Assembly (NCBI GenBank): GCA_963767925.1
Contig: CAVYGB010000002.1
Span: 544,001 to 608,000 of the forward strand
Source: an uncultured delta proteobacterium
GTDB taxonomy: Bacteria > Myxococcota_A > Polyangia > Fen-1088
DNA: 64,000 nucleotides
Reading direction: 5' to 3'
In this document: positions 40,328 to 64,000 of the stretch, piece after piece
Position numbering within the stretch: position 1 is the first letter of the stretch
How the letters are laid out: each line of letters begins with the position of its first letter
Made by a program: the position numbers and the translations under genes
Notes under the pieces: model-generated
The model's database searches: none
Seen by the model: only the letters and a program-made list of their open reading frames with translations
Told to the model about the DNA's origin: nothing

Positions 40328-40472
40328 GGCGTCGGCCGAGCGTAGCCAACCCCGCCGGAGGCGGCAAGGACGTGACCCTGGCGACCCCATGCTCGCGAAT
40401 CAACCCGCCCGCCCGCCGTGGAGTCACCTCTCTTCCGCAGGCACGGGACATGTCGCGCGCCGCCTGGAGAAC

Positions 40473-40806
40473 CGAATGGTTTGTCGCCCAGACCCCTCAC
40501 CCCTCCCTCTCCCCGCTGGCGCGGGGCGAGGGCGAACGGACAGTGGGGAGCAGTAGATCCCGGCCGATTGCACCCTCGATCGTCAGATCAGATGACCGGG
40601 GGGAAGGGAGGTGTCGCGCCCCGCTACGGATAACGAATGGTTTCGTTGGGACCCCTCACTCCTCCCCGCTGCCGCGGGGCGAGGGGGAACGGACAGTGGG
40701 GAGCGGTTGATCTCGGCCGTTTGCACCTTCGATCGCCGGATCAGATGAGCGGGGCAGCTGGCCGGTTGTTCGCCCTCGCCCCGCGGCAGCGGGGTGAGGA
40801 GGGGCT
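40473..40806. repeat. Two ~125 bp direct repeats with REP-like hairpins plus an inverted arm
   Basis: CGAATGGTTT...CCCCTCAC...GGGGCGAGGG.GAACGGACAGTGGGGAGC...GATCAGATGA at 40473 and 40634. 40769-40803 is complementary to 40652-40689. Confidence 0.75.
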
Positions 40807-41056
40807 CCGGGGTGGACGTGAAGGCTGTCGGTGCTCCACGGGCGGCGGCGGGTGCGGAGGCGGCGCCAGAGGGTGACGATCAGGGGGTCGGTGGAGGAGC
40901 TCCACATGGCCGGGCCCATGAACAGAACCGCCACCAGTGTGCCGACCAGGGCAAACAGGATGGCCTGCCAGTACGTCCCCATGGGGACAAGTCTAGCAAG
41001 CGGGGGCATCTGGCGGTTTCGACAGGGCCCGGTGGCGGCGAGGCGCCGGGTGGGGG

Positions 41057-44333: not shown

Positions 44334-45270
44334 ATGGCCGCCCGTGTGCCGTCCGAAGCCCTCAACCCCGCGCAGCAGCGCGTGGTCGACCACGGAGACG
44401 GGCCGCTGCTGGTGGTGGCGGGCGCGGGATCGGGCAAGACGCACACGCTGGCCCACCGGGTGGCGGCGCTGGTCGCCCGGGGGGCCGACCCCCGGCGTGT
44501 CCTCCTGCTCACCTTCACCCGCCGGGCCGCGGCCGAGATGGTGCGCCGGGCGGCGCGCATCGCGGGGCTCGGCGGCAAGCACGACGGCCTCTGCTGGGCC
44601 GGCACCTTCCACGCCGTCGCCAACCGGCTGCTGCGCATCCACGCCCCCCGCCTGGGCCTCGACCCGGCGTTCACCTTGCTCGACCGGGAGGACGCCGCCG
44701 ACCTCATCGATCAGCTCCGTCACGAGCAGGGGCTGTCGCGCACCCACGAGCGTTTTCCCCGCAAGGGGACCTGCCTGGCGATCTACTCGCGCGTGGTCAA
44801 CACGCAGGTCCCGCTGCAGGCGTGCCTCGAGACAACATTCCCCTGGTGCCTGTCCTGGCACGATCCCCTGCGCGCGCTGTTCGCCGCCTATGTGGAGGCC
44901 AAGATCGAGCGCCAGGTGCTGGACTACGACGATCTGCTGCTCTACTGGTACCACCTCATGGGCGAGGCAGCCCTCGCCGCCGAGGTAGGCAGCAGGTTTT
45001 CCCACGTGCTCGTCGACGAGTACCAGGACACCAACACGCTGCAGGCGGAGATCCTGGCCCGGCTGCGGCCCGATGGCCGCGGCGTCACGGTGGTGGGCGA
45101 CGACGCCCAGGCCATCTATTCCTTTCGCGCCGCCACCATCCGCAACATCCTCGCCTTCCCCCAGGGGTTCGACCCGCCGGCGGCCGTGTACGCGCTCGAG
45201 CAGAACTACCGCTCGACCCAGCCCATCCTCGCCGCGGCCAACGCCGTCATCGCCCTCGCTTCCGAGCGCC
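44334..45270 (+). pseudogene. UvrD/Rep-family helicase, 5' part (interrupted)
   Basis: LNPAQ, AGAGSGKT, LTFTRRAA, GTFH, VDEYQDTN, VGDDAQAIYSFR and QNYRST; breaks off at 45270. Confidence 0.9.
44781..45270 (+). repeat. 490 bp direct repeat, copy A (copy B at 58809-59298)
   Basis: Base comparison by eye shows near identity (two substitutions noticed). Confidence 0.92.
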
Positions 45271-45366
45271 GGGGCTCGGGGGGGCCGGGCCGCGCGAGTT
45301 GACATAGGACACGATATCGGTCGTCTACGTCCGCGCGCGTCATGCAGCGTGATTTTCCTATCATCC
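45269..45366 (+). repeat. 98 bp direct repeat R, copy A (copy B at 58601-58698), containing TTGACA and an ATG
   Basis: CCGGGGCTCGGGGGGGCCGGGCCGCGCGAGTTGACATA...CATGCAGC.TGATTTTCCTATCATCC in both copies. Confidence 0.9.
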
Positions 45367-45539
45367 GAAACCTACGACCCCGAACGGTTCATGGAGACCC
45401 TGGACAACTGGGGCTGGTTCGCCCGACCGTCCGAGGCGCCCCTGTGGTTCGCGGGCGGTTTCTACCGACGAGGCGGCGCTCCCTGACCGGGCGGCCGGCC
45501 GGCGCTGCGGGCGAACCCGGCCATCCCGACAACCGACTC

Positions 45540-45854
45540 CTACGACGGCGGTGACGGCTGGTCTTCCGGCGCGCGCCGTCTGGGCAGGTGGACGCCGTAG
45601 GCGCTGCCGGAGCCTTCCCGGACGACTATCAAGCTGAGGAGGGAGCCCGGAAAACCGAAGATGAACGCGAGGGCCCGCCAGCCGACGCTGGGGTGGTGCT
45701 GCGCCCGCATCCCGGCGTAGCTGACATTGGCCAGCATCCACAGCGCCGTCACGCCACTACGGCCGATCGAATCGCGCGCCCCCTGGTCCGCGGCATGGGC
45801 CATGGTTGTCCACAGCAACGGCAAGAGACCGGACAGGATCTGCATCCAACGCAT
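45540..45854 (-). CDS. Small hypothetical membrane protein
   Basis: MRWMQILSGLLPLLW... with further hydrophobic segments (WRALAFIFGFPGSLLSLIVV). Confidence 0.55.
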   Translation of the reverse strand: MRWMQILSGLLPLLWTTMAHAADQGARDSIGRSGVTALWMLANVSYAGMRAQHHPSVGWRALAFIFGFPGSLLSLIVVREGSGSAYGVHLPRRRAPEDQPSPPS

Positions 45855-45938
45855 GCTTCCGGCTATCACGCCGGCGGGGCCTCCGGGCAAGAAATTTTCA
45901 CGGATCGCGGCCCGCCCAACACGTTGACACTCTTTTTT

Positions 45939-47470
45939 GGCTCTCCGACAGAATCAGTGGGTGATCTGAGACCTCCTGGAGGCCGGTCGCGCCCGCCGCT
46001 CGCTGGATGATACGAGCGTGCGCGGGCGGGTAAAGGGTTCGCGCGGCGGCCGCGCCGGCGCAGCGCCGCCCTTGACCCACCCTGTGCGCGCTCTGCGATT
46101 GGCTGAGATGCGGCGGGCGGGGACGGACTGGGCGGCGACGGGCGAGGGAGAAAGTGGGTCCAACGCTTCCCGGGGCGGGTATCGTCCCGGTTTGCATGAA
46201 CCCGAAGGACCCGAGGTGCAAGTTAAGACGATCTTGAACCGATGTCACCGGTTCAAGTGCTTCGTGTACGGCGTCTGCTACTTGGGCGACGACGGCTCGA
46301 TAAACGTGGCGGTTCGTCCCCGCAAGGGGTCGGCGGCGGTGTGCTCAGGGTGCCAGCGGCCGGGCCGGTCTACGACACGAGCCGAGCACCGCGCGGCTTT
46401 GCCTTCGTGCCGCTGTGGGGCTTCGCCGTGTGGCTGTGGTACTGCATGCCGGGTCGACTGCGCCGAATGCGGCGTCACAGTCGAGGAGGTTCCGTGGGCT
46501 GATGGCAAGAACCCGACCTGCAACGCTTACCGCTTGTTTCTGGCCCGCTGGGCGCGACGACTACCCTGGAGCCAGGTCGCCCAGATCTTCAACAGCAGCT
46601 GGGGCGTGGTGTATCGAGCCATCCGGTGGGTGGTGGACTACGGCCTGGCCCACCGAGATTCCGACAGCGTCGAGGCCATCGGCGTCGACGAGATCGCCGT
46701 GTGGAAGGGTCACAAGTACCTCACCGTCGTGTACCAGATCGACCAGGGCGTTCGCCGGCTGCTTTGGGTCGGCAATGAGCGCACAGTCGAGAGCTTCCGT
46801 GGTTTCTTCGCGATGTTCGGCCAGACCCGCACCCTGGCCCTTCGCTTCGGTGCCAGCGAAATGTGGAAGCCCAACCTCGATGTCATCGCCGAGTTGGCTA
46901 GCCAGACCGTACACGTCCTGGACAGGTTTCACATCGTCGCCAACATGAACAAAGCCGTCGACGAGGTCCGCGCCGGGGAAGCCCGTGAGCTGGTGCGCCA
47001 AGGCTACGAGCCCATCCTCAAGCATTCGAGGTGGTGCTTTCTCAAGCGCCTTGGAGAACCTCAACGACGCCCAGCGGGCCAAGCTCGCCGACGTCCTCAA
47101 GTACGACCTAAGGTCGGTGCGTGCCTACCTGCTCAAGGAGAGCCTGCAGGCCTTCTGGAGATACACCACGGCCGGCGCGGCGGGCTGGTTCCTCGACAAG
47201 TGGTGCACCCGTGCGCTGCGCTCGCGCCTGGAGCCCATCAAGAAGGTCGCGCGTTCTCCGCGGGGCCACCGCGAGCTCATCCTCAACTGGTTCCGAGCGA
47301 AAAAGGAGATCTCCGCCGCCGCCGTCGAGGGTCTGAACGCCAACGTCAAACTCGCACTCAGAAAAGCTCGAGGCTTCCGCACCTTCCAGGTCCTCGAAAC
47401 CGCCCTCTATCACGAGCTCGGCCGGCTATCCGAGCTCCCAGAGATCACCCATAGATTCTGTTGAGGGGGC
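45939..47470 (+). mobile_element. ISL3-family insertion sequence with a frameshifted transposase
   Basis: TIRs GGCTCTCCGACAGAATCAGTGGGTGATCT and AGATCACCCATAGATTCTGTTGAGGGGGC with T-tracts on both flanks. Transposase motifs IGVDE..KGHKY, LDRFHIV and VEGLNANVK..RKARGFR are split over frames. Confidence 0.9.
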
Positions 47471-47486
47471 TTTTTTTCAGGTTGCA

Positions 47487-49124
47487 ATGATTCCTCATTT
47501 GATGCTTCTACGCTCTCAGGCGTCCCGGACCTGGTTTCTTGGGCTGATGCTGGCCCATCTGGGCCTGATCTGGGCACTTCCCGTCCTGCCCGCTCAGGAC
47601 CTCCCGCAACATCTCACCTACGCAACCATCCTGCGCGACTACCAGCGCCCGGATAACTTGTTCCGGGAGTTTTACCAGCCCGATGGCGCCAACCAGAGCT
47701 ACTACACCACCTATCGTCTGCTGGTCGGCGCTGCCCGCTTCATAGCGGTCGAGGCCAGCGCGCGCCTGCTCTTTTCCGCCTACGTCATCGCCCTTTTCAT
47801 GTCCTTTCGCGCCCTGGTGCGCACCTGCGTCCCGCCGGGCGGGCCGGCGGCCCAGGCTACTCCGCTGCTCGCATCGCTGCTGGTATGGAATCCGGTCTCA
47901 TGCATGGGGTTTCTGGCCTTCCAGCTGGCGATTCCCGCGCTGCTGAGCGGCGTGGTCGCCTTCGTGCGCCTGGCCGAACGGGAGCAGGAAGTGTCCGTCC
48001 GAAACGCCTGGCCGCTGCTGGCCGCGACGGCCGTGATCGGTTCGTTGCATGTGGTGGCCAGCTGGCTTCTGCTGCTGTTCGCGGGCCTCTATACGGCCCT
48101 CAGCCCGCATCGGCGTCGTCTGCACGCTTTCCTGGTCTTGACCGGCGCAGTGGTCAACGTCACCGCCATCTGGGGCGCCCTCGGTGATGCGCAGATCGCT
48201 GGGCAGCAGGCGCTGGACCTCGCCTCACACGTGAAAAGCGCCTTCGCCTTCGAGTTCATAACCGAGGCTTTCCGCCTGACCTGGCGCGATCCCATCGCCA
48301 AGCTCGGCTACCTGCTCTGGAACGTATTAGGTCCTTTCCGCATCACCGGTCAGGTTCTTGTCGCAGGCGTGCTGCTGGCCGCCTACCTCATGCTGCGGCG
48401 TCCTCCCCGAGAAGCACCGACCGGCCCAACCGGCCTGCGCCGGGCTTTCACCCGTGCGACGCTGGCCCTGCTCGCTCTCAGCTGGCTGATTCCCTGGGGA
48501 ATCCACTTTCCATCCGAAGTGACCTTCCTGGACTTCCGGGTGATGGCGGTGGCCATCATCTTGCTCGCGGCGGTTCCGGATCTCCGCTGGCCGACGCCAA
48601 CCCGGGCGACGGCCCTGGTCGGAATCGCCTGCGCCATCTTGACCGTCCATTTCGGTGTGCGGGCGTTTGCGTTCGGCACCGAGGCCAGGAGTGCGCTCAC
48701 GCTGCTGGAGTCCGCCAGACCAGCTGGGGTGATGATGGGCCTGACGTTTTTTAACCGAAGCGACCACTTCGGCAAGCAGTTCCGGCAGTCTCACTTTCTG
48801 CCCCTCTACTACACGGTTCGCCACGGCGGGATCTCCACCCAGTTCTGGGCCCGCTATACCGACCACCTTCCAGTGGCCTATCGCCCAGGCAAGCGACCCT
48901 CCGCTCCACCGGACTGGCACCCCGGGGAGCTCCGGCCGGCTCATCTCGAGGGCCCGCTCGACTACGTGCTGCTTCAGCGAGCCACCCAGGACAACAGCAC
49001 CCGCGAGCAGCAGACTTCCGGGACCGTCGAGGCGATGCTGAAGACGCGGGCCGATCTGGTTAGCTGCGAAGGAATCTGGTGTCTCTATCGCACGCGTCGG
49101 GGTGGCGTGCCTAAGACACCCTGA
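47487..49124 (+). CDS. Polytopic membrane protein, putative GT-C-fold glycosyltransferase
   Basis: N-terminal TM followed by PAQDLPQH loop, multiple TMs, DFRV motif and a soluble C-terminal domain. Confidence 0.7.
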   Translation: MIPHLMLLRSQASRTWFLGLMLAHLGLIWALPVLPAQDLPQHLTYATILRDYQRPDNLFREFYQPDGANQSYYTTYRLLVGAARFIAVEASARLLFSAYVIALFMSFRALVRTCVPPGGPAAQATPLLASLLVWNPVSCMGFLAFQLAIPALLSGVVAFVRLAEREQEVSVRNAWPLLAATAVIGSLHVVASWLLLLFAGLYTALSPHRRRLHAFLVLTGAVVNVTAIWGALGDAQIAGQQALDLASHVKSAFAFEFITEAFRLTWRDPIAKLGYLLWNVLGPFRITGQVLVAGVLLAAYLMLRRPPREAPTGPTGLRRAFTRATLALLALSWLIPWGIHFPSEVTFLDFRVMAVAIILLAAVPDLRWPTPTRATALVGIACAILTVHFGVRAFAFGTEARSALTLLESARPAGVMMGLTFFNRSDHFGKQFRQSHFLPLYYTVRHGGISTQFWARYTDHLPVAYRPGKRPSAPPDWHPGELRPAHLEGPLDYVLLQRATQDNSTREQQTSGTVEAMLKTRADLVSCEGIWCLYRTRRGGVPKTP

Positions 49125-50674
49125 GGCGCCGGGCTGGCGCTTGACCTCGTCCACCAGGCGTGGACCCACCTGACCCCGAGATAGGCGGCGAGCAACAAGG
49201 ACGGCAGGAAAACCACCGGGGTCCGCAGCGTCGAGTACTTCAAAGGATAGATGGCCAGCGCCAGACATGAGAACAGCACCGCCAGCTGGGTGGTGGCCCG
49301 TCGGCTGGCTATGGCGGAAAGGCACACGAACCAGGTGACGTACCAGGGCCAGAACCAGACCGCCAGCAGGCACACGGAGAACATGACCCAGGCGGCGGCA
49401 AGAACCGCCGTGGTCATCGTGGTCACCGAGATCGCTCCCAGGGCGATCGCCGCCAGCGAACCGGTGTTGGCCGCGGCGCGGGCGACCTCTCTGGTCCGGG
49501 AGCCATCCGGTCCCGCCATCATACGGCCGGCCGCGGGGGTCGCCTGACGCTTCTGCAACTCGAGGATGAGCGCCCCCACCGAGTTGGCGAGAAGCTTTTG
49601 CGGCGGGGACCCGGTCAGGACGGCGATGGTCCGCGAACCCTCCCAGAAGCGGCCGTAGAGAACGACGGTGGTGCAGGCGACGATGACCCCGATGCCGGCC
49701 AGCCGTATCCACCGCCGCCAGTCCGGTGGCGCCTCGCGTACCGCCACGATCACGTAGAAGAGTAGCGCCACCAGCGCGGTCCACTTGGTGAGCACCGCCA
49801 GCGTGAACATGACGACCGCCGTCTTCCAGCGTTGCTGATACCCCAGCCAGATTCCGACCAGCATGAGAAACAACATCATCACGTCGTTGTGGCCGTGTCC
49901 GACGAACTCGATCAACAACAGTGGGTTCAACAGATAGAGGAGCGTGCTGAAGGCCTGTCGGTCTGGCGCCACCCGTCCCACGATTTTCCAGATCAGGCCC
50001 GCGCTGCCACCGTGCAGGGCGGCCGCCACCAGCTTGAACAGCAGGACGTAGGTGATGATGGTGCCGCCCAGCCGCTCGGCCAGCCAGGTGACCCCCATTC
50101 CCAGATAGAGCCAGGCGGGCCCGTAGACGCTCGGCTCTCGCTTCCAGTGAACCCACTGCAGGAAGGGATCGGAGACGTACCGCACCGGAGACTCGAGCAG
50201 CGAATTCCCCCCGTGCACCAGGTCGATCCGCCCGTACATGATGTAGCTGTGGATGTCCCCGGAGAGCAGATTGGGCAGGGCGAGCAGGGGCGCGCTGGCC
50301 AGCCCCAGCATCCAGACGGCCGGGCGCAGCCGCCGCCGGGCCACATCGGACGAGCGCGAGCCCAGCAAGAGCCCCACGTATCCCAGCACGATGAGGGCCA
50401 GGGCTCCCGCCTGCCAGAGCTGAGCGCTGGTCACAGCGACGCCGGGGGCAGCCTGGAGCAGTTCCCGGGTCGTCGCCTCCGTGCCCTGCCGCCACGCCGG
50501 GTACTGGAAGAAGCTGTCCCAGATATGGCCGGGAGCCCAGGCCAGGCTCCTCAGCCGCATCACCAGGAACAGACCGAGATGACCGGCCAAAAAGCCGACC
50601 CCCGACACGAGGAAGCCGGACGGACGCGAGAGCCAGCGATCCGCCCGGGCCCGCGCTCGGCGAAGACGGTTCAC
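49085..50674 (-). CDS. MptA/MptB-like polyprenol-phosphate-sugar glycosyltransferase (GT-C)
   Basis: LSGDIHSYIMYGR, PSVYGPAW, LNPLLLIEFVGHGHNDVMM and WFWPWY. The GTG start overlaps the dsbA-like stop. Confidence 0.8.
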   Translation of the reverse strand: MNRLRRARARADRWLSRPSGFLVSGVGFLAGHLGLFLVMRLRSLAWAPGHIWDSFFQYPAWRQGTEATTRELLQAAPGVAVTSAQLWQAGALALIVLGYVGLLLGSRSSDVARRRLRPAVWMLGLASAPLLALPNLLSGDIHSYIMYGRIDLVHGGNSLLESPVRYVSDPFLQWVHWKREPSVYGPAWLYLGMGVTWLAERLGGTIITYVLLFKLVAAALHGGSAGLIWKIVGRVAPDRQAFSTLLYLLNPLLLIEFVGHGHNDVMMLFLMLVGIWLGYQQRWKTAVVMFTLAVLTKWTALVALLFYVIVAVREAPPDWRRWIRLAGIGVIVACTTVVLYGRFWEGSRTIAVLTGSPPQKLLANSVGALILELQKRQATPAAGRMMAGPDGSRTREVARAAANTGSLAAIALGAISVTTMTTAVLAAAWVMFSVCLLAVWFWPWYVTWFVCLSAIASRRATTQLAVLFSCLALAIYPLKYSTLRTPVVFLPSLLLAAYLGVRWVHAWWTRSSASPAPQGVLGTPPRRVR

Positions 50675-52005
50675 TAGTTCTGCGCCTTGCGACTGGCGCC
50701 TTCTGCCTCGGGGGCTTCCGTCGCGACCTTGTTCGCCCCGCCGCCGGCCCTGGCCAGAGCCTTCTCCACCAGCATCCGGAGGGCCCAATACGGCGCCGGG
50801 CCTTCTACCCGGCTCCCGTTGATGAAGATCGTCGGCGTCGTCGTCACTCCCAACGCGCGGGCCTGCCCGACATCGGTCAGGACCCGGCTGCGCGCCTGCA
50901 CGTCGGGGCCGCCCGAGGCAGGCAGAGCCAATCCGAGGGCTTCGGCATGGCGTTCGATATCGACGGGCGACTGCGAGATCTGATTGAGGAACAGGTGGTC
51001 GTGCATCTGCCAGAACTTGCCCTGACTCCTCGCTCGCTCGGCCACCTCCGCGGTGCGAAGTGCATCCTGGTCGGTTTCCCCGGGAAAATGCTTGTAAGTG
51101 AGGCGGACGCTGGATCCGTAGGCATCGATGATCCGCTTCAGAGTCCCCGCCATGCGCGCCGATTCACCCGACCTGAAGTCGGCAAACTCCACGATGGTCA
51201 CCAGAGGACGTTCCGCACCCGTCCAGGGACTGTCCCCGGTATCGACCGGAACCGGGCTCTTCATCCGATCCTCCAGCCGGGCCTGTACCCGGGCCAGCTC
51301 ATGGGACAGCAAGGGATCGGGGGGGACCAGCACACGGTACAGGTCGTCCGGATAGCTCGCGCCGGGATGATGACGCTGCACCCGCAGCAGTTCTTCCTCC
51401 ACGACCTTCGACAGCTCTTCGAAGGGGATGGTTCCCGCGACCCGGCGGCCATTCACGAAGAACATGGGAACCTCGTTGAGGGCCAGGCGTCCGCCCCATT
51501 CGATGTCGTCCTCCAACCGCGCCCAGGTCGCATTCGATTGCAGGTCAGCGAAGAACCTGCCCGTATCCATCCCCAGCACGGTGGCCGCCCCGACAATCAC
51601 CTCGCGGCTGGCATCATTCCCCGCGCTGAGCAGCTTCTCATAGAGCTGCAATCCCTGACCCTGACCGCCAGCCGCAATGGCCGCATGGGCCACCAGGCGC
51701 GAGGACTTGTGTCCAGGGAACGGGAAGTGTCGGAGCGACACCCGCACGTCCCTGGGCTTTGCGGCGACCAGGCGTTTCGCGCCGTCGAAGGCCTTCTGGC
51801 AGGGCGGACAATCGCTGTCGCTGTAGAGGATCAAGGTGACCGGCGCGTTCGAAGGGCCAGCGTTGATGTCGGCGATCGGGACGTGGACGCGGGCGATGGC
51901 CACTTCTGACCCGGCGCCGGTGCGCAAGAGCTTGATGAGCCCGTACCCGGCGAAGATCGAGGCCAGGACCGCAGCTGAAGTTGCAATCACATTTTTCATC
52001 ATCAT
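50674..52005 (-). CDS. Two-domain DsbA-like thioredoxin-fold protein
   Basis: N-terminal TM. Domain 1 has SDSDCPPC, RHFP and VPMFFVNG. Domain 2 has EFADFRSGES (no Cys), KHFP and TPTIFING. Confidence 0.85.
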   Translation of the reverse strand: MMMKNVIATSAAVLASIFAGYGLIKLLRTGAGSEVAIARVHVPIADINAGPSNAPVTLILYSDSDCPPCQKAFDGAKRLVAAKPRDVRVSLRHFPFPGHKSSRLVAHAAIAAGGQGQGLQLYEKLLSAGNDASREVIVGAATVLGMDTGRFFADLQSNATWARLEDDIEWGGRLALNEVPMFFVNGRRVAGTIPFEELSKVVEEELLRVQRHHPGASYPDDLYRVLVPPDPLLSHELARVQARLEDRMKSPVPVDTGDSPWTGAERPLVTIVEFADFRSGESARMAGTLKRIIDAYGSSVRLTYKHFPGETDQDALRTAEVAERARSQGKFWQMHDHLFLNQISQSPVDIERHAEALGLALPASGGPDVQARSRVLTDVGQARALGVTTTPTIFINGSRVEGPAPYWALRMLVEKALARAGGGANKVATEAPEAEGASRKAQN

Positions 52006-52961
52006 TTTTCACCAAACAACGCTTTGTCGAATGTCGGTTGTTGCAAGGAAAACAATCTCACCGCACGCCGCACCTCACGCGCAGACAGCAGCAGCAGCGG
52101 CGCTGGCGCATATGCGAACCAGAACAGAAATGGAACTTCGAAGGCCACAATGATGGAGAGGAAAAAGGCCTGGTAGACCACCGTCGCCCAGAGCCGGGTG
52201 CGTCTCCAGGCGATGGCCAAGGGAAGGGTCAGCTCCAGCAAGACGGTTGCCCAGTTGGCAACGACCGCCACCCCGGGCCACCGCAGGAGCCCCAACTCGA
52301 CCAGCCATCCGCGCACGACAAAGCCGGCGGGGTAGTCGGCCAGCTGGTGAAACCCTCCCTGGAGCGGCCAGCCGGCCGTCAGCTTTTCGACTCCCGCGAA
52401 GAACAGCGAGACGAGAACCAGGCCACTCAGCAGCAGGGCTCCAACCTGGTCGGCGGTGGGTCCCGACGCCGCCGGGAGCGAGCGACCGTCGTGGCCGGCG
52501 GGAGGTGAGTCCCCGTCAGTCTTCTTCCGATCGAGCAAGGAACGCAGGGATAGGGCCTGGTCGGTCGTGACGAAGATGAGGACCGGCAAGAGAATCCAGA
52601 TCGTCTCGAGGGCCAGGGTTCCGACGCTCAAGGCATTCATCGAGGCGAAGAAATACAGGCCCACCAGCGAAACTGCGGCGCACAGGCGGGTGCAAAGACC
52701 GAGCGCCCCTCCCAGGCAGGCCAACATGGTCAGGGCCACCAGAGGCATCACCAGCGTCAGGGGCAGCCGGGCGGCGAGGTCATGGAGGGTGGCGTTGTAT
52801 TGACCGATGCGAAAGGCGTCCCGGCCGAAATTCTCGTCGAAGGCGAAAAACGCCGGAAAATAGTGGACGATCACCCCGCTGAAGAAGAACGCCCGGAACA
52901 GGCCCAGCGCCCGCGCGCGAACTTGCCGGTCAGGACTGGTCGATTGTCGAAAGAGATCCAT
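52002..52961 (-). CDS. HTTM-domain membrane protein (SdpB / vitamin K-dependent carboxylase-like)
   Basis: ALGLFR, LGLCTR, ALSL, LFFAGVEKL, LLELTLP and RTRL are characteristic of HTTM proteins. The stop overlaps the next ATG. Confidence 0.75.
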   Translation of the reverse strand: MDLFRQSTSPDRQVRARALGLFRAFFFSGVIVHYFPAFFAFDENFGRDAFRIGQYNATLHDLAARLPLTLVMPLVALTMLACLGGALGLCTRLCAAVSLVGLYFFASMNALSVGTLALETIWILLPVLIFVTTDQALSLRSLLDRKKTDGDSPPAGHDGRSLPAASGPTADQVGALLLSGLVLVSLFFAGVEKLTAGWPLQGGFHQLADYPAGFVVRGWLVELGLLRWPGVAVVANWATVLLELTLPLAIAWRRTRLWATVVYQAFFLSIIVAFEVPFLFWFAYAPAPLLLLSAREVRRAVRLFSLQQPTFDKALFGEK

Positions 52962-53391
52962 TCCAGCACCTGAAAAGCTCGCGTCGGTCGCGGTCCTCAC
53001 GCTCCAGATTTCGCCAGGTCAGCTCGAGGTGGGCGCCCTGCAGGTCCGGTCGTCGGCGACACAGCGACTCCAGATAGGGGCGGGCAGCCTTCATCAGGTT
53101 GAGCGCCAGGCGACTCTGGTGAAAACCTGCGGTCCGCGTGTCCACCAACTCCTGGACAGAGCGGAGCTGCGTTTCGTTCGCCGGCCTGAAGCGCGCAAAG
53201 GGCACCAGTTCGTGAAGCCGGGCGAACATCAGGAACCCGATCGAACGGTGAACGAAGGGGAGAGAAGGAAGCCGGTCCTGCCAGGCGGGCGGCAGAAAGG
53301 TGGTCTTCACCGCCATGACCAGGAACAACCCGAACCAGCACGCCGCCGCGATCATGGGCAGCTGAGCTCGAACGGTTCGCAGGGAAGGCAT
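52930..53391 (-). CDS. Small single-TM partner of the HTTM protein (SdpA-like)
   Basis: N-terminal TM, GFLMFA (cf. WxMFA) and YLESLCRR...FRC cysteine pair. Overlaps the HTTM gene. Confidence 0.6.
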   Translation of the reverse strand: MPSLRTVRAQLPMIAAACWFGLFLVMAVKTTFLPPAWQDRLPSLPFVHRSIGFLMFARLHELVPFARFRPANETQLRSVQELVDTRTAGFHQSRLALNLMKAARPYLESLCRRRPDLQGAHLELTWRNLEREDRDRRELFRCWNGSLSTIDQS

Positions 53392-53411
53392 CCAGGTCTC
53401 CGCGGGTTCGA

Positions 53412-54059
53412 TCAACGCGGGTTCAGGCCCGGTAAACATGCGAGGGCGCCCTGGGTCCTGACCCGGACCCGGTCACTGCCCTGGTAGGCGTCCGGGAACT
53501 CATGGTCCGGGGCGGGTTCGGCCGCCCTGAGCGTGGAGGCCCGCAGGGCGAAGCAGTCCAGGGCCTGGGGAGGAAGCGTCAGATTGCCCAGAACGCGCTC
53601 GAGGACGATGTTGGAAAGACTGGCCTTGTATTCGGTGGCATTGATGTCCACCCGGAAGATCAGGTCGACGCTGGCGGCGCTGTCCGGCGGCCAGCAGGGC
53701 TCCAGGCGGTCGACCAGCGCCAGCTCGATTGCGTTGCGTAGAGCCGCCGCTCTCCTCGAAATCTCGTATTTGCTCTCCACGATCATCTCGTCCAGGGGGC
53801 CGAGCTCGACAGCGGTTTCCGACGCCTTCGCCGAGCTGATCACCTCCAGCGCTCCCCGCAACTGATCAGCCGTCGGGCGAGACACCGGTCCTTCGGCGGG
53901 AAGCGGGCGGGAATCCTCGGTCGGGGCGGGGGCGGCCGAAGCCAAGGGAGCCGGCCCGTCCGGGGCGGGATGACCCCTCAGCATGACCAGTCTCGTCAGG
54001 ACAAACGCCGTCGTGAGAGGCAGCGCCGTGATCAGCAGCAGCGAGGCAAGTGGTCGCAT
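53412..54059 (-). CDS. Hypothetical membrane-anchored protein
   Basis: N-terminal hydrophobic segment, Pro linker and LEPCW...LDCF cysteine pair; in operon. Confidence 0.65.
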   Translation of the reverse strand: MRPLASLLLITALPLTTAFVLTRLVMLRGHPAPDGPAPLASAAPAPTEDSRPLPAEGPVSRPTADQLRGALEVISSAKASETAVELGPLDEMIVESKYEISRRAAALRNAIELALVDRLEPCWPPDSAASVDLIFRVDINATEYKASLSNIVLERVLGNLTLPPQALDCFALRASTLRAAEPAPDHEFPDAYQGSDRVRVRTQGALACLPGLNPR

Positions 54060-54069
54060 GGGTCTGGCC

Positions 54070-54747
54070 TCAGATGGGCGGTATGGGTGGAAAATCCGTG
54101 GGGCGGAACGTCTCGCGGCTACGCAGCGTCTCCAGGTCGGTCTGGCGCGCCTTCTGATACCAGGCTCGGTAGTCATCGGGCGCGCGGTGGCTCGCGCTGA
54201 AAACGAGGGTCAGACAGGTGCTGGCCCCACCATTTTGCAGTCTGGAATTCGGCCCGAAGTGCACGGTGTCGGCCAGGGGGACGTAGGCCGCCAGACGGCG
54301 CGCTTTGGTCAAGTAGCTCAGGTCGTCCGCCTCCATGCACAGTCGACAGGTCATCGTGCGGCAGTCGACATCGGACAGCCGCGCGCCGGGCAGGACGGCG
54401 GCAAAGTCCCGGGTCAGGGTCTCCTTCACTGACTGCTCGATGCGCGAGGCCCAGACGTCGTCGCGGCCCTCCTTGTCGTAGAGCTCACCCGGCCGCATCG
54501 ACAGCTTGACCAGCTTGTTCGCGTCGTAGTCGGGGGCGCGATGGTCGAGCGTCAGTGTCTTCTTCGCGGAAACTGGAGGCACGAACTTCGGAACCGTCTT
54601 CGGTCTTTCGCGGGCGGCTATCTCCGCCGCGGGTTTGCCGCTTCCGACGTCACCGCCAGCCCAAGGAGGCCGCGGCGTCAACCACCAGGCCAGGCAGATC
54701 CCCACCAGCGTGCAGGCAGCCGCCAGCACCAACTTGCGTCTGTTCAT
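54070..54747 (-). CDS. Hypothetical membrane-anchored protein with a CRxxxC motif
   Basis: MNRRKLVLAAAC signal-anchor; EGRDDVWASRIE...DVDCRTMTCRL. Confidence 0.7.
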   Translation of the reverse strand: MNRRKLVLAAACTLVGICLAWWLTPRPPWAGGDVGSGKPAAEIAARERPKTVPKFVPPVSAKKTLTLDHRAPDYDANKLVKLSMRPGELYDKEGRDDVWASRIEQSVKETLTRDFAAVLPGARLSDVDCRTMTCRLCMEADDLSYLTKARRLAAYVPLADTVHFGPNSRLQNGGASTCLTLVFSASHRAPDDYRAWYQKARQTDLETLRSRETFRPTDFPPIPPI

Positions 54748-54822
54748 GGTCGTCACCACGTCCGAGGTCGCGGCCGTGAGGGCCTCGATGGGGGCCGAGT
54801 CCTCACGGCGTTGCGAGTTGAA

Positions 54823-55107
54823 TTAGGTTCCTGATCCCTCGTCGCAGCCGGACACTTCCTTGCAGCTGTTGCAGGTCAGAAGATCGAACGGGCCGCAGGG
54901 GTTCGTCTCCATCGTGCAGCTCTTCTGCGTCGATTCCGGACCGTTGCAGTCACAGCCCGCGGTGCAGAACTGGCATCGCTCCCAGGTGCTGCAACCGGCT
55001 TCGGCGGGCGCTCCCACAGCCAGTCCGCCTCTGCTCGTGTCGATCGACGCCACAAAGGCGCCCAGGGCAATCCCGAGGACAGACAGGACCAGAGTCACTT
55101 TTTTCAT
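54823..55107 (-). CDS. Secreted cysteine-rich peptide precursor (94 aa; 57 aa core with 10 Cys)
   Basis: RBS AGGAAAG. MKKVTLVLSVLGIALGAFVA...APAEA leader, then GCSTWERCQFCTAGCDCNGPESTQKSCTMETNPCGPFDLLTCNSCKEVSGCDEGSGT. Confidence 0.8.
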   Translation of the reverse strand: MKKVTLVLSVLGIALGAFVASIDTSRGGLAVGAPAEAGCSTWERCQFCTAGCDCNGPESTQKSCTMETNPCGPFDLLTCNSCKEVSGCDEGSGT

Positions 55108-55320
55108 GTGCTTTCCTATCGCAGGTGGTCGTTGATGAACTGGCACGTAAAAACAACGCGCCTGATTAGAGAATAGAGACCGTGCCCACGACGCTGTCTA
55201 CCAAAGATTCATGGATTGCCGCTTAAGGCGGGAGTCTGACCGGCCCGACAGCATAAAATAGATCGTAATTACATGGACTTATGACGAGAGCCTGGACGTG
55301 CAAAAAATTGCCGCCTGAGA
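55108..55320 (-). promoter_or_regulatory. AT-rich upstream region of the peptide operon
   Basis: Non-coding and markedly more A/T than its surroundings, directly upstream of the precursor gene. Confidence 0.45.
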
Positions 55321-55492
55321 GGCCCCTGCGCTCTGTCGACCACGAGAAGAGGGCTACTGCCAATAGGTCTGTGCCCATCCGCATACCCGTGCGTCGGCGT
55401 CAAGGGGGCGTGGATAGAGGACTGAATGCCGTCAGCAACGCTTCGCGTCTCGAATAAGCGGGGCCTGAAATTGACCCGACAGGGACGAGTCC

Positions 55493-56764
55493 TCAGGCGG
55501 GCTGGGGCTCTCTACGTCCCAGCGGGCCCCAGAGGTGCCCGGCGGTGGCCACCGCCAGAAAGGGCAGGACCCAGAGCAGGTAGTTCCGGTGCACGATCCC
55601 GCTGCCCAGGAAGAGAAGCACCAGCGTCTGGGACACCAGGGCGGCGATGGCGGCGGGCGTGTGGGGCCGGGGCGAGCGCAGGTGGCGCCAGATCAGGAAT
55701 CCGATCCCCAGGACGGTCGCCGCGCTGACGACCAGTCGGGCGGCGGGCGGCAGGAAGAAGGCTAGGCTGGTGGAGTCGGGGCGCCGTGAAAGCTGGAACA
55801 GGAGGATGCCAGCGATCAGCTCGCGCGGGGAGGTCAGCAGGGAGGGCAGGTAGCAGGCGATCGAGACGGCCCCGGCCACCGCGAGAGCCCGCCACCGGCC
55901 CCGCCAGGTCGACGGTCCCGCCGACGCCGACGGCGCGAGCAGCAGCGGAACCGCCAGCAGCAGACCGGGCAACAGCTTGGCGCCGATGCTCGCTCCGATC
56001 AGGGCCGCTGAGAGGAGGGGGCGATTCCGGCTGCGCGCGGCGAACGCCAGCAGCCCGAGCGCCACCGGGACCGCGTCGTTCACCCCGGCCTGGAAGAGCT
56101 CCTTGTGAACGAATCCGGGAACCAGGACCAGAAGGGCAGCCCCCAGCCCGGCGGTCAGACCGCCCCGGTCGGCGGCCCACAGGCCCGCGCCCGCCGCCAT
56201 CAGCCCGTAGGCCACGACGGTCGTCGCGAAGTACCCGGCCAGGCCCGCCCCGAGGACACCCGGCGCGTAGGCCCAGATCATCATCGGTCCGTACTTGAAG
56301 CCGCCGTAAAAGGCGAAACCCGAGCCGCCGGGATTCTCCCGCGCCCCCAGGCGGTCCATGAAAAGCTCGTAGGGCGAAAGGCCACGCGCCCACAGCTCGA
56401 CCGCCCGGATGGTCGTCTGGCCGATGTCCACCGTCGGCATGCGCGCGTCCAGCACGACCGCGCCCGCCTGCACCAGACGCCAGGCCAGGAGCATCCCCAG
56501 GGCGACGGCCAGCGCCGCCACTAGCCCGGGCAGGGGCCGGGGCTCCCGCTCGCGCAGAGCGGTCACCAGCATCAGCACCCCGCCCAGCATCAGGGCCCGC
56601 TCCACGCCCCGACCCCAGTCCGCCCAGGCCAGGGCGAAAAACCCGACGAAGAAGCCGACCAGCGGCAGCAGCACCCCCAGCGCGAAGGTCCGGGCTTCGC
56701 CGGCAACCGATGTGGCCACCGGCGGCCAGAAGGTTCGCGAGTTGACCGGCGCCCGCGCGCTCAC
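55493..56764 (-). CDS. GT87/DUF2029-like membrane glycosyltransferase
   Basis: VDIGQTT...GLSPY, GFKYGP, GVND, GAKLLP and HRNYLLW. The GTG start overlaps the upstream TGA. Confidence 0.75.
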   Translation of the reverse strand: MSARAPVNSRTFWPPVATSVAGEARTFALGVLLPLVGFFVGFFALAWADWGRGVERALMLGGVLMLVTALREREPRPLPGLVAALAVALGMLLAWRLVQAGAVVLDARMPTVDIGQTTIRAVELWARGLSPYELFMDRLGARENPGGSGFAFYGGFKYGPMMIWAYAPGVLGAGLAGYFATTVVAYGLMAAGAGLWAADRGGLTAGLGAALLVLVPGFVHKELFQAGVNDAVPVALGLLAFAARSRNRPLLSAALIGASIGAKLLPGLLLAVPLLLAPSASAGPSTWRGRWRALAVAGAVSIACYLPSLLTSPRELIAGILLFQLSRRPDSTSLAFFLPPAARLVVSAATVLGIGFLIWRHLRSPRPHTPAAIAALVSQTLVLLFLGSGIVHRNYLLWVLPFLAVATAGHLWGPLGRREPQPA

Positions 56765-58458
56765 GACCGACCCGTGGCCAGGTCGGTGGACAGAGCCACC
56801 TGACGGTGGCGGGCCCACCAGGCGCGGGCCCACCTGACCCCGAAGTAGAGCGTCAGCAGCATGGTGGGAACGAACACCACCACCGTGCGCAGGTACGAAT
56901 ACCTCAGGGGATAGATGACCAGCCCCAGGGAGGAGAAGAGGACCCCGAGTTGCATGAGCGCCCGGCTACCCGTCAGCGGAACCAGACTCAGGGACCAGGT
57001 CGCGTACCAGGGCCAGAACCACACCGCCAGCAGGCAGACGAAGAACAGGACCCAGGCGGCCGCCGCGACCGCCGCGCTCATCGAGGTCACCGTTGCCGCC
57101 CCCAGCGCCAGCGCCACCAGAGTCGCCGTCTGGCTGATGTCACGTACCACCGTCTTGTCCCGGTAATTTTCCGGTCCCGGCATCACGCCCATGCGGTACC
57201 CTCGGGCGGGGCGGCCATCGCCTGGACCGTGCGGCGCGGAACCGGGGCCAGCATTCCGTCCGGACCCACCAGCGCGCGTTGCACGCCCTTGCGCCGATCG
57301 ACGATCAGCGCTCACCGAGTTCGCCATCATCTTCTGCGGCGGCGACCGGGTGAGCATGGCGAACGAGTCCGGCCCCCCCCAGAAGCGAGCGTAGAGCGCG
57401 ACAGTGGTGAGCGCCACCAGCATGCCGGCTTCCGCCAGCCGCGCCCACCGCCGCCAGTCGGCAGGGGCCTCCCGCGCCACCACGATGAGGTAAAAGAGCA
57501 GCGCCACCAGGGCGGTCCATTTCGTGACCACCGCCAGGGTGAACGCCACCACCGCCACCGGCCAGTGCTTCTGGTACCCCAGCCCGACCCCCAACAGCAT
57601 CAGGAACACCATCATGGCGTCGTTGTGCCCCTGTCCCACGAACTCGATCAGCGCCAGGGGATTGATCAGATAAAAGAGTGTGCCGAAAGCCTGCCTCTCG
57701 GGCGCCACCCGCCCCAGGATCTTCCAGATCAGGCCCGCGCTGCCAAAGTGCAGGGCGGTGGGCAGGAGCTTGAACAGCAGGGTGTAGACGATGATGGTGC
57801 CGCCCAGCCGCTCGGCCAGCCACGTCACCCCCATGCCGACGTAGAACCAGGCCGGCCCATAGACGCTCGGTTCGCGTTTCCAGTGGACCCAGGGCAAGAA
57901 GGAATCAGAGACGTAGCGCGACGGCGCTTCGAGCAGCGAGTTGCCCCCGTGCAGCAGGTCGATGCGCCCATACATGATGTAGCTGTGGATGTGGCCCGAC
58001 AGCAGGTTGGGCAGCACCAGCAGGATCGCGCTCGCCAGCCCGGCCAGCCAGACGACGCTGGGTAGCCGGCGCCGGGAGAGCGCGGGGGTGAGCGAGCCCA
58101 GCAGGATCCCGACGTACCCGAGCACGATCACCATCAGGCTTCCCAGCTGCAAGAGCTGCTCGCCCGTCACGGCGATCCCCGGGGCGGCCTGCAGCAACGC
58201 CCGGGCACCGAACTCCGTGCCGTGTCGCCACTTCGGGTAGTCGAAGAAGCTGTCCAGGATGTGGCCGGGAGCCCAGGCCAGGGTCCTGGACCGCATCACC
58301 AGGAAAAAGAGGAGATGGCCGGTCAGAAAGACCGCCGCCGACACGGCGAAGCCCGGCCGTCCCGAGAGCCATCGGACCATCCGCTCCCTGACCGAAGTTG
58401 AACGGGTCGCTCCGGAAGGACTGTCTGCTGGGCTCAAGAGATCACCTAGGGTTCGCAT
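56761..58458 (-). CDS. Second MptA/MptB-like GT-C glycosyltransferase (paralogue of 49085-50674)
   Basis: LSGHIHSYIMYGR, PSVYGPAW, GHNDAMM and WFWPWY; extensive similarity to the first copy. Confidence 0.8.
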   Translation of the reverse strand: MRTLGDLLSPADSPSGATRSTSVRERMVRWLSGRPGFAVSAAVFLTGHLLFFLVMRSRTLAWAPGHILDSFFDYPKWRHGTEFGARALLQAAPGIAVTGEQLLQLGSLMVIVLGYVGILLGSLTPALSRRRLPSVVWLAGLASAILLVLPNLLSGHIHSYIMYGRIDLLHGGNSLLEAPSRYVSDSFLPWVHWKREPSVYGPAWFYVGMGVTWLAERLGGTIIVYTLLFKLLPTALHFGSAGLIWKILGRVAPERQAFGTLFYLINPLALIEFVGQGHNDAMMVFLMLLGVGLGYQKHWPVAVVAFTLAVVTKWTALVALLFYLIVVAREAPADWRRWARLAEAGMLVALTTVALYARFWGGPDSFAMLTRSPPQKMMANSVSADRRSAQGRATRAGGSGRNAGPGSAPHGPGDGRPARGYRMGVMPGPENYRDKTVVRDISQTATLVALALGAATVTSMSAAVAAAAWVLFFVCLLAVWFWPWYATWSLSLVPLTGSRALMQLGVLFSSLGLVIYPLRYSYLRTVVVFVPTMLLTLYFGVRWARAWWARHRQVALSTDLATGRS

Positions 58459-58808
58459 AAATCAAAAAAGATGCTGCGGGACAAATAATGAGGTCTCTTG
58501 CGACAGGCATGTCCATGGAAAAGGGCGGCCCTTTCGAGCTCGTGCGATCTCCCTCACGCCGCGCGCGGGAGCGGGCGGGTGCCGATACGGATAGAACGCC
58601 CCGGGGCTCGGGGGGGGCCGGGCCGCGCGAGTTGACATAGACACGATATCGGTCGTCTACGTCCGCACGCGTCATGCAGCTTGATTTTCCTATCATCCCA
58701 TCGCCTCCGGGTCGACCAGCTTGGTCCCCAGGGGCGGCATCTGCAGCAGCGGGTGGCGCGTGCGCATGTTCGCCAGGTGCTGAGGGTGGTGACCAAGGCC
58801 TCGATGCA

Positions 58809-60394
58809 ATCTACTCGCGCGTGGTCAACACGCAGGTCCCCCTGCAGGCGTGCCTCGAGACAACATTCCCCTGGTGCCTGTCCTGGCACGATCCCCTGCG
58901 CGCGCTGTTCGCCGCCTATGTGGAGGCCAAGATCGAGCGCCAGGTGCTGGACTACGACGATCTGCTGCTCTACTGGTACCACCTCATGGGCGAGGCAGCC
59001 CTCGCCGCCGAGGTAGGCAGCAGGTTTTCCCACGTGCTCGTCGACGAGTACCAGGACACCAACACGCTGCAGGCGGAGATCCTGGCCCGGCTGCGGCCCG
59101 ATGGCCGCGGCGTCACGGTGGTGGGCGACGACGCCCAGGCCATCTATTCCTTTCGCGCCGCCACCATCCGCAACATCCTCGCCTTCCCCCAGGGGTTCGA
59201 CCCGCCGGCGGCCGTGTACGCGCTCGAGCAGAACTACCGCTCGACCCAGCCCATCCTCGCCGCGGCCAACGCCGTCATCGCCCTCGCCTCCGAGCGCCAC
59301 GCCAAGGAGCTGTTCTCCACCCGCCCCGGCGGACAGCGCCCGCGGCTGGTCACGGTGGCCGACGAGATCGCCGAGGTCGACTACGTCGTCGGGCGCATCC
59401 TCGAGCGGCGCGAGACCGGTGTGCCCCTGCGCCAGCAGGCGGTGCTCTTCCGGGCCGCCCACCACAGCGATCTGCTGGAGGTGGAGCTCGGCCGCCGCAA
59501 CATCCCCTTCGTGAAGTACGGAGGCCTGCGCTTCCTGGAGGCGGCCCACGTCAAGGACATGCTGGCCGTCCTGCGCTGGGCGGAGAACCCCCGCGACGCG
59601 CTGGCCGGCTTCCGCGTGGCCCAGCTCCTGCCCGGCGTCGGCCCCCAGACCGCCGCCCGGCTGTGCGCGGAGCTGGCGGCGGCCAGCGTCGGCACGCGCG
59701 AGGCGCTGGCCGGCTGGAGCCCGCCGCCGGCTGCCCGCGCCGACTGGCCCGCCTTCGTCGATCTGTACGCCCGGCTGTGCGACGTCGCCACCCCCTGGGC
59801 CGGCCAGCTGGGCCTGGTCCGCCGCTGGTACGAGCCGCACCTCGATCGAATCTACGACAACGCCCGCGTGCGGCTGGGCGACCTGGAGCAGCTCGAGCAG
59901 CTGGCCGCCGCCGCGCCCTCGCGGGAGCGCTTCCTGTCGGACCTGGCGCTCGATCCCCCGAGGCCACGGGCGCCGAGGCGGGCCCGCCCCACCTCGACGA
60001 GGATCACCTCGTCCTTTCGACGGTCCACTCGGCCAAGGGGCAGGAGTGGGACTCGGTGTTCGTGCTCCACGTGGCCGACGGCTGCTTCCCCTCCGACCTG
60101 GCGACGGGGAGCCCCGACCAGATCGAGGAGGAGCGGCGGCTGCTCTACGTGGCGATGACCCGGGCCAAGAACCTGCTCGAGCTGGTGCACCCGCTGCGCT
60201 TCTTCATCCGCCAGCAGGCCCGCCGGGGCGACCGCCACGTTTTCACGCCGCGCACGCGCTTCATCCCCGAAGCGATCCTGGACCGCTTCGAGCGCACCTC
60301 CCCGATCCTCGAGCTCCCGAGCAACGACGTGGCGCCGGGGTCGGCCCCGCCGGCCGTGGACGTGGCCGGACGCTTGCGCGCCTCCTGGCGCTGA
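58809..60394 (+). pseudogene. UvrD/Rep-family helicase, 3' part (lacks Walker A; one frameshift near 59958)
   Basis: Begins with the 490 bp repeat and continues AVLFRA, GGLRFLE, LSTVHSAKGQEW and EERRLLYVAMTRAK. Confidence 0.88.
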
Positions 60395-63695: not shown

Positions 63696-64000
63696 TCCTG
63701 CGAAGTCTAGCGACCATCCGACACGCCCGCAGCTTTCCTGCAACGTAAGTCCCCACTCCCCCCGACCCTAAGGCCCACCACGCTTCACGACGGCGCAAAT
63801 GGTGTGCCCAGGGAACGAGCCATGCTCTTAGAAGATAGGTCCTCCCTTCGGCTCGCGAGCGGGATTGGCCTTTGGTGGTCGCCGGGAAGAGGCCCGCTGC
63901 GCTTCGGAGGGAAAGGTCCCTCCCTGGGGCTCGCCGGGGCTTACAGCGCTTCGCGCTTGCCCCTCTGTCGGCGCTAGCAAGCTCGCGCAGACGCGAGCTG

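Follow-up and report, generated by a model that had tools for sequence, protein, structure and literature searches.

Locus and genetic setting

The window analysed here is a 64,000-nucleotide (nt) stretch (G000:C2:544001-608000) of the 9.3 Mb genome, 71% GC, of an uncultured delta proteobacterium of the class Polyangia. It carries a block of ten open reading frames (ORFs; Table 1) encoding a short Cys-rich peptide precursor, two membrane-anchored proteins (hypA and hypB), a small single-transmembrane (small-TM) protein paired with an HTTM protein, a DsbA-like protein and four multi-transmembrane proteins annotated as glycosyltransferases (GT) of the GT-C type. The block is a mosaic on an inserted island, and its core is a three-gene unit, peptide–hypA–hypB, that has no family match. 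The ten ORFs of the initial annotation were recovered at the same positions. It was also right that hypA and hypB are membrane-anchored, but the conserved core and the island nature of the block had been overlooked.

The island (45367-58597, about 13 kb) has a GC content of 66%, compared with 71–72% in its flanks, and sits within a UvrD-like gene, between 101-bp direct repeats for which blastn found no further copies in the genome. A 493-bp part of the UvrD-like gene is present on both sides of the island (44778-45270 and 58806-59298, 99% identical); in a genome of the same genus, G001, this gene is a single ORF of 696 amino acids (aa) that matches both halves and contains no insert. No integrase was seen at the island. 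One DNA run contained short stretches nearly identical to parts of the flanks and of the GT-C genes, and left the core almost uncovered; the depth was low, and nothing is concluded from this. Short repeats with many genome-wide copies are located at 40445-40814 and 63845-64000.

Table 1. Features of the island and of the gene that it interrupts (positions within the window).
Feature	Position	Strand	Basis or remark
UvrD-like helicase gene, 5′ part, interrupted	44334..45270	+	Sequence comparison
Left 101-bp direct repeat, island boundary	45266..45366	.	95% identical to right copy
ISL3-type insertion sequence inside island, transposase frameshifted	45939..47470	+	86% identical copy on contig C4
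Convergent multi-TM GT-C-like protein	47487..49124	+	36%-identical paralogue on contig C12
MptB-like GT-C copy 1 (MptB-1), first-loop Asp present	49085..50674	-	Start overlaps DsbA stop
Membrane-anchored tandem DsbA-like protein	50674..52005	-	PF01323 and PF13462 above cut-off
HTTM protein, 319 aa	52002..52961	-	PF05090, 32 bits vs cut-off 27.7
Small single-TM partner, 153 aa, putative SdpA/LinL/DUF5819-like role	52930..53391	-	Homologue alignment
hypB: Pro/Ala linker joining a membrane anchor to a domain that has two invariant Cys	53412..54059	-	TonB-C-like, a lead only
hypA: N-terminal membrane anchor, linker, 167-aa domain with invariant CxxxxC pair	54070..54747	-	Unnamed family
Peptide precursor, 94 aa, putative long signal peptide ending AEA, 57-aa core	54823..55107	-	Ribosome-binding site present
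GT87-family GT-C	55493..56833	-	GT87, 26.3 bits vs cut-off 25
MptB-like GT-C copy 2 (MptB-2), His for first-loop Asp	56761..58458	-	64% identical to copy 1
Right 101-bp direct repeat	58598..58698	.	Sequence comparison
UvrD-like gene, duplicated internal part and 3′ part	58806..60394	+	Sequence comparison, family scan

The peptide precursor and its gene run

The peptide gene encodes, as first annotated, a 94-aa precursor with a 57-aa core following AEA. The core contains 10 Cys, with a spacing of 5-2-3-1-9-6-7-2-5, together with 5 Glu, 3 Asp, 7 Thr and 6 Ser residues, and is acidic (net charge about −5). Without modification, its calculated monoisotopic mass is 5976.3 Da in reduced form and 5966.2 Da when five disulfides are present. 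The precursor is hydrophobic only at its N-terminus and has no Pfam or NCBIfam match. Of the signal and pro region described previously, the N-terminus ending in AEA stands; because several related peptides (see below) have an AxA-like site 0–3 residues before the first Cys, this part may be read more simply as one long signal peptide.

The genes for the peptide, hypA, hypB, small-TM, HTTM, DsbA-like and MptB-1 proteins form one tight, co-oriented run of seven intact ORFs, in which the gaps from the peptide gene onward are 76, 10 and 20 nt and are followed by overlaps. The small-TM gene overlaps the start of the HTTM gene by 32 nt, and the stop/start couplings proposed earlier are present as overlaps, ATGA at 52002-52005 (HTTM/DsbA) and TAGTG at 50674-50676 (DsbA/MptB-1). 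A 385-nt intergenic stretch separates the two upstream GT genes from the peptide gene, and these GT genes therefore need not be on the peptide transcript. This stretch (55108-55492) is of lower GC content and contains two similar 16-nt elements starting with TGGGCAC, possibly regulator sites; no sigma-70 signal above chance was found near the peptide gene.

The hypA–hypB module and its peptides

The usual partners of the peptide are hypA and hypB, not HTTM, DsbA or GT-C proteins. The neighbourhoods of hypA were drawn from 151 and 401 genomes, the second set giving a floor owing to a stricter first look. A profile search matched 11 of the 151 genomes, and 30 of its 31 matches were examined as loci; three of these were set aside as fusions of hypA to DsbA. 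Among the 27 stand-alone hypA loci, a gene for an exported Cys-rich peptide, at most 1.7 kb upstream of hypA and in the same orientation, was found in 13, hypB in 14 and both in nine, counts that lean high, since the peptide filter was relaxed after examples had been seen and iteration of the hypB profile drew on the same loci. The background for such an upstream peptide is 0.33% of random positions in the source genome, where hypA has paralogues. A stricter genome-wide filter gave 13 candidate peptides, five of which lie upstream of one of 12 hypA matches. The 13 peptide-bearing loci span five genomes, with five loci in the source genome, and a further peptide, at locus L030, is cut by a contig end.

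The sister peptides have 6 to 12 Cys residues with varying spacing. Their Cys counts are even in 12 of 13 cases, which supports the original proposal of an exported five-disulfide peptide as the most likely one. Further peptide–hypA modules, with peptides of 6–12 Cys, lie at G000:C1:165680, C2:1277145, C2:2199610 and L064-L072, and in L065, L070 and L072 a gene for a 310–345-aa lipoprotein-like protein lies between peptide and hypA. Only one peptide of the set has an odd number of Cys (seven). Its gene, at L063:12802-16364 (G000:C2:2252801-2256363), is succeeded by those for hypA, for a DsbA of a single domain and for a protein of 607 aa that contains a DDD motif and matches DUF6271 weakly. 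Glycocins are S-glycosylated on Cys; by analogy, the 607-aa protein might, as a guess, be an enzyme of the GT-A type with the spare Cys as its S-glycosylation site. No description of the peptide–hypA–hypB unit was found in the literature searched, which excluded most subscription journals.

The hypA family comprises 2936 representatives at E ≤ 1e-3 (50% clustering) and has two invariant Cys. Its 148 examined members belong to no Pfam or NCBIfam family, with scattered weak matches only; an Atlas search returned only unnamed clusters with scores under 0.9, and viral contigs and plasmids gave no match. The hypA model has a predicted local distance difference test (pLDDT) score of 96.9 and weak fold matches, among them the periplasmic domains of GspL (PDB 2w7v, 8a9w, 6ghu) at Z 5.7–6.2 (root-mean-square deviation, rmsd, 2.6 with 79 residues aligned at Z 6.2; best Foldseek E 4.5e-3). 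As in GspL, a single anchor is followed by a linker and a ferredoxin-like domain; however, hypA has no cytoplasmic domain, and GspL is tied in Z with phage neck proteins, so that the likeness is a lead only. Profile comparison shows hypA and hypB to be unrelated to one another. For hypB, no family or PDB/structure match was found, and a TonB_C cluster with a score of 0.92 shared only 112 features with it. The Cys pairs of both proteins are probably structural. Complex prediction for hypA, hypB and the peptide core gave a score of 0.02 and a mark of 0.32, which provides no verdict and is not evidence.

DsbA is tied to hypA elsewhere: hypA is fused behind DsbA domains in three of the 30 loci and adjacent to DsbA in L046, and P0018 has both. 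Another 20 hypA loci were examined, with their flanks widened if the contig was long enough, and one has an adjacent DsbA gene. On contig C12 (L001:8791-11782), the gene right after hypA–hypB is paralogous to that of the convergent GT-C-like protein. No peptide was detected in this unit, which has insertion-sequence remnants on both sides and may have lost its peptide gene.

Some extracytoplasmic function (ECF) sigma factors have a membrane helix and, after it, either DsbA domains plus hypA or hypA plus hypB (P0018 and P0140; three loci, L040, L044 and L045). Because the same domains form the outer part of these membrane-tethered factors, the peptide could be a signal and not a weapon, a ligand with hypA and hypB as its receptor or decoy. 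The presence of at least five divergent peptides in one genome agrees with this idea, as does the acidic, hydrophilic core, unlike the Bacillus subtilis peptide SDP. Nevertheless, hypA and hypB of the window are almost without a cytoplasmic part, their helix beginning at residue 4–6, and cannot signal alone; the regions upstream of the peptide genes share no common motif, with a sigma-54-like pattern in one of 13. A signalling role, compatible with a modified or an unmodified peptide, is rather unlikely.

The small-TM/HTTM pair

The small-TM protein has a G-x-x-M-F motif and two Cys residues that are invariant in the best 120 of its 204 homologues (120/120). Against the SdpA profile it aligned weakly at this motif, with E = 0.0012 and a probability of 19%, compared with E ≥ 0.16 for controls. 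It has no PDB sequence relative. The model of the HTTM protein (pLDDT 79) has 15 Foldseek matches at E ≤ 0.001, all of them to GGCX (best E 1e-5, TMq about 0.6), and comparison with GGCX by VIA gave Z 12.0 with an rmsd of 5.8 and 190 aligned residues, the next value being 8.0. The description of the two genes as an SdpAB-like HTTM pair is upheld by this GGCX fold and by the small partner gene, which 45 of the 52 related loci also contain. With the single HTTM sequence as the query, no match was found in the genome collection, and among 101 genomes only the source genome was matched.

In GGCX, K218 is catalytic and N159, H160 and Y395 form the Glu pocket, as described in bioRxiv 2025.02.09.637231; D263 activates the quinol together with K218, and E is tolerated at position 263, according to PMC13486548. 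HTTM residues K193 and E243, invariant in 18/18 family members, align with K218 and D263. The positions of N159 and H160 are occupied by T115 and L116 (Thr/Leu in 18/18 members), a placement that comes from a sequence alignment in which a gap of two residues is close by. In structure, the match covers GGCX residues 47–327 only and ends before the propeptide-binding domain, part of which may be replaced by the 153-aa partner. Judged from sequence and model, the small-TM and HTTM proteins would resemble a split vitamin K carboxylase that keeps the quinol-activating Lys and Asp/Glu. A DUF5819–HTTM pair has been modelled as a split GGCX resembling MloH in preprint 10.64898/2026.08.19.745780, and truncated viral GGCX homologues are described as epoxidases in PMC13486548. 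A DsbB/VKOR-like role of the HTTM protein is unlikely; it has no invariant Cys (C82 is found in 15/18 members). One alignment column with Cys in 16/18 members holds Phe in the window protein, and the partner does have an invariant Cys pair.

The initial annotation suggested Glu modification to γ-carboxyglutamate (Gla). The HTTM pair would then turn Glu, or Asp as in MloH, a bacterial GGCX homologue that carboxylates Asp (as cited in preprint 10.64898/2026.08.19.745780), into a malonate-type residue. The fold, the equivalents of K218 and D263 and the five Glu and three Asp of the core are consistent with such a reaction. It is nevertheless very unlikely: the pocket residues and the propeptide-binding domain are missing, and Glu is not enriched in the core (5/56 versus 34/651 in the sister peptides, p = 0.22). 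The core also lacks ExxxExC, the pattern of Gla domains.

Genomes contributed 12 and metagenomes 40 of the 52 related HTTM loci, which include some near-duplicates and of which 27 are shorter than 7 kb; the first 12 served to build the neighbour profiles. Named relatives come mostly from Polyangia, Polyangiaceae and Kofleriaceae assemblies. In the 25 loci of at least 7 kb, a Cys-rich lipoprotein of about 390 aa, a 4-Cys anchored protein and a multihaem-TPR protein were each found in 24, a trypsin-like protein in 20 and a GT-C-like gene in 17, the last bearing out the proposed link between HTTM and GT-C genes. As a scale, PF13231 has 14 matches in the 9.3 Mb of the source genome. The convergent GT-C family occurs in nine of the 52 loci.

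This canonical cluster (L006-L017, L127-L166) is highly conserved, with the partner, HTTM, lipoprotein, 4-Cys, multihaem-TPR, trypsin-like and GT-C genes, and has the look of a separate, SdpABC-like system. Its lipoprotein has a conserved N-terminal half and a Cys/Gly/Trp-rich C-terminal half; the trypsin-like protein has a Cys-rich tail, and profile comparison revealed no clear resemblance of the 4-Cys protein to hypA or hypB. The source genome has other HTTM genes of different subfamilies (L049-L059), some followed by a small single-TM partner of their own. Related genomes contain DUF5819–HTTM and SdpA–SdpB pairs (L091, L092, L094 and L095), with a candidate exported precursor nearby in L092, L094 and L095; the HTTM proteins of these pairs have G-G-D at the position of Q/G-T-L in the window family.

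The DsbA-like and GT-C proteins

The DsbA-like protein has an N-terminal helix and is matched by DSBA and Thioredoxin_4 at two stretches each. Domain 1 has a CPPC motif and domain 2 contains no cysteine; the assignment to DsbA thus holds at the family level, with CxxC in the first of the two domains only.

The identification of four GT-C glycosyltransferases was borne out for the GT87 protein, but the MptB-like proteins score 57.5 and 38.7 against TIGR03459, far under the cut-off of 439, and the convergent protein has no Pfam, NCBIfam or PDB match, its likeness to GT-C being limited to an early Asp motif and a prediction of about eight helices. MptB-1 has no PDB sequence relative. MptB-1 and MptB-2 lie on either side of the GT87-to-DsbA stretch; the His in MptB-2 may reflect inactivation or a sequencing error. 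Relatives occur in 21/151 genomes. Seven extended loci, five with MptB-like genes and two with convergent-type genes, contain neither hypA nor an HTTM pair nor a convincing peptide (0/7); in two of these loci (L122, L123) the MptB-like relative is paired with GT87. Of the GT-C families, only the convergent one was seen next to each of the two other modules.

Periplasmic O-glycosylation of the peptide on Ser/Thr by MptB-1 or the convergent GT-C protein is an unlikely reading. MptB-1 is translationally coupled to DsbA, the convergent family follows hypA–hypB on C12, and the core has 13 Ser/Thr. However, the C12 unit has no detected peptide, GT-C relatives occur without peptides, and MptB and GT87 enzymes are known as polysaccharide or lipoglycan mannosyltransferases. 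Both signalling and peptide glycosylation can hold alongside other readings.

Comparison with known systems

In B. subtilis, SdpAB is needed for SdpC processing, and sdpABC and yitPOM likewise place a small partner and an HTTM gene beside a Sec-exported precursor, as described in PMC6818787. The window shares the HTTM membrane protein beside a partner at the domain level; the HTTM protein has no NCBIfam SdpB match, and the partner has no SdpA match (TIGR04034, NCBIfam). The source genome has none either, while the B. subtilis control matches. By inspection, the window HTTM family has a G/Q-T-L loop where SdpB-like proteins have G-G-D. The SdpABC precursor has 203 aa with a C-terminal hydrophobic toxin domain according to PMC6818787, whereas that of the window has 94 aa and is acidic, with 10 Cys. 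DsbA, hypA, hypB and GT-C are extras of the window with respect to SdpABC.

Linaridin clusters contain an HTTM protein, LinG, which acts with LinL and LinE in dehydrobutyrine (Dhb) formation, and for a ribosomal peptide the HTTM protein and its partner are implicated in dehydration of Thr and in epimerisation (PMC9927463, bioRxiv 2020.07.09.196543, PMC10373908); GrmL is a candidate epimerase in the linaridin work (PMC10125368 and PMC10849128 are among the sources). The HTTM domain is common to LinG and the window at the domain level only, and no LinE hydrolase, methyltransferase, decarboxylase or ABC exporter was found among the ten island ORFs scanned. Linaridin and Sdp enzymes may use quinol chemistry. 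Judged by its sequence, the locus would work like SdpABC or a linaridin cluster, yet fails membership of both.

With GGCX, MloH and the DUF5819–HTTM pairs, the window pair has in common the membrane fold, the catalytic Lys, the D263-equivalent acid and a two-gene split form. DUF5819 itself (PF19136) is matched by 0/11 members of the partner family and by nothing in the source genome, and hhalign gave E = 0.64 for two members. Myxobacterial cis-defensins, described in PMC11561630, are likewise small Cys-rich peptides with a signal peptide, but their pattern as given there, CX(2,18)CX3CX(2,12)CX(4,17)CXC, fits none of the 13 module peptides.

Proposed function

The best explanation as a whole, with a probability of roughly 45%, is that the island joins the peptide module to borrowed envelope enzymes. 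From gene content, folds, residues and co-occurrence, we infer binding, substrates and chemistry as follows. The precursor is very likely exported by Sec and cut after AEA, the core acquiring five disulfides by periplasmic oxidation, with domain 1 of DsbA as a local oxidase or isomerase. hypA and hypB, which accompany such peptide genes, would probably be inner-membrane-tethered, dedicated partners that hold the peptide during or after folding. The small-TM and HTTM proteins, in view of their fold and conserved residues, would quite likely be a split GGCX-like enzyme making a strong base from menaquinol and O2; that its substrate is this peptide is a tentative proposal, held with slightly more doubt than belief. 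Because the Glu pocket is lacking, non-carboxylating chemistry is favoured: the pair would most likely remove an alpha proton to give D-residues or dehydrated Thr/Ser, as proposed for LinG/LinL, or alternatively promote a processing step as SdpAB does. The GT-C proteins would most likely glycosylate a cell-surface acceptor and are unlikely to act on the peptide. The product would most likely be a strain-specific competition or recognition factor. In favour of the joint system, the HTTM pair sits with an exported Cys-rich protein in 24 of the 25 long related loci, and the core has a slight excess of Ser/Thr (13/56 versus 85/651 in the sister peptides), whose p = 0.04 comes from one of two post-hoc tests.

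Several points weigh against such a joint system. The full combination is found only in this window. Most peptide modules have no local enzymes, and the peptide class therefore does not need them; upstream of 14 of the 27 stand-alone hypA genes, no peptide was detected. The association counts lean high as noted, and loci of related genomes are not independent. The 20 extended hypA loci contain no window-type HTTM pair or GT-C types, and none of the 52 HTTM loci contains DsbA, hypA, hypB, MptB, GT87 or a small Cys-rich peptide. This HTTM subfamily was found in no other genome of the order (0 of 88). No relative found shares more than about 40% identity with the HTTM protein, whose substrate therefore cannot be transferred from relatives, and the usual partner protein of the subfamily, the 390-aa Cys-rich lipoprotein, is missing from the window ORFs. 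By inspection, the precursor lacks the PxxxTP of linaridin leaders, being of a signal-peptide, disulfide type, and the Ser/Thr excess is marginal. The recurrence check proposed in the initial annotation, HTTM and DsbA genes beside small Cys-rich ORFs, turns out negative as worded in these 52 HTTM and 20 hypA loci. Its integrated production line is possible but has been seen only once, and the usual partners of the peptide are hypA and hypB.

The modules' separate travel (0/20 and 0/52) and the missing lipoprotein also speak for a chance mosaic, a realistic though less probable explanation. Here, peptide–hypA–hypB would work alone with housekeeping disulfide enzymes, and the HTTM pair and GT-C genes would have come from the larger conserved cluster, acting on a lipid, a glycolipid or a surface protein, or having lost their substrate. 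This agrees with an island that contains an insertion sequence and a duplicated MptB gene, with the MptB-like and GT87 pairs without a peptide in L122 and L123 and the absence of the modules from all seven GT-C-relative loci, and with the lipid chemistry proposed in PMC13486548 for truncated giant-virus GGCX-like proteins. On the other hand, a run of seven intact ORFs so tightly spaced from the peptide gene to MptB-1 is less readily understood as a chance assembly. The convergent GT-C family, moreover, occurs both after hypA–hypB on C12 and in 9/52 HTTM loci, and therefore provides an independent link between the two modules.

A wider form of the joint system seems improbable: a widespread, unnamed and hypervariable class of exported disulfide-rich peptides, each on a dedicated hypA/hypB membrane platform open to exchangeable tailoring cassettes, where in this island the HTTM pair, as a split GGCX homologue dependent on menaquinol and O2, would epimerise or dehydrate the peptide, DsbA fold it and the GT-C enzymes glycosylate it. 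If true, this would be a case of tailoring of a RiPP (a peptide made by the ribosome and modified after translation) wholly outside the cytoplasm, and of vitamin K chemistry without carboxylation.

Significance

The chemistry of bacterial HTTM pairs is a question common to SdpAB, LinG/LinL and the DUF5819 pairs. The locus offers a divergent HTTM pair in which the quinol residues are kept and the Glu pocket is lost, with a short, soluble candidate substrate alongside, and makes vitamin K-driven deprotonation without carboxylation directly testable. The peptide–hypA–hypB unit points to a rich bacterial supply of mini-proteins with many disulfides, and hypA can be used as bait for peptides that are out of reach of sequence search; all this holds even if the enzymes of the island are passengers.

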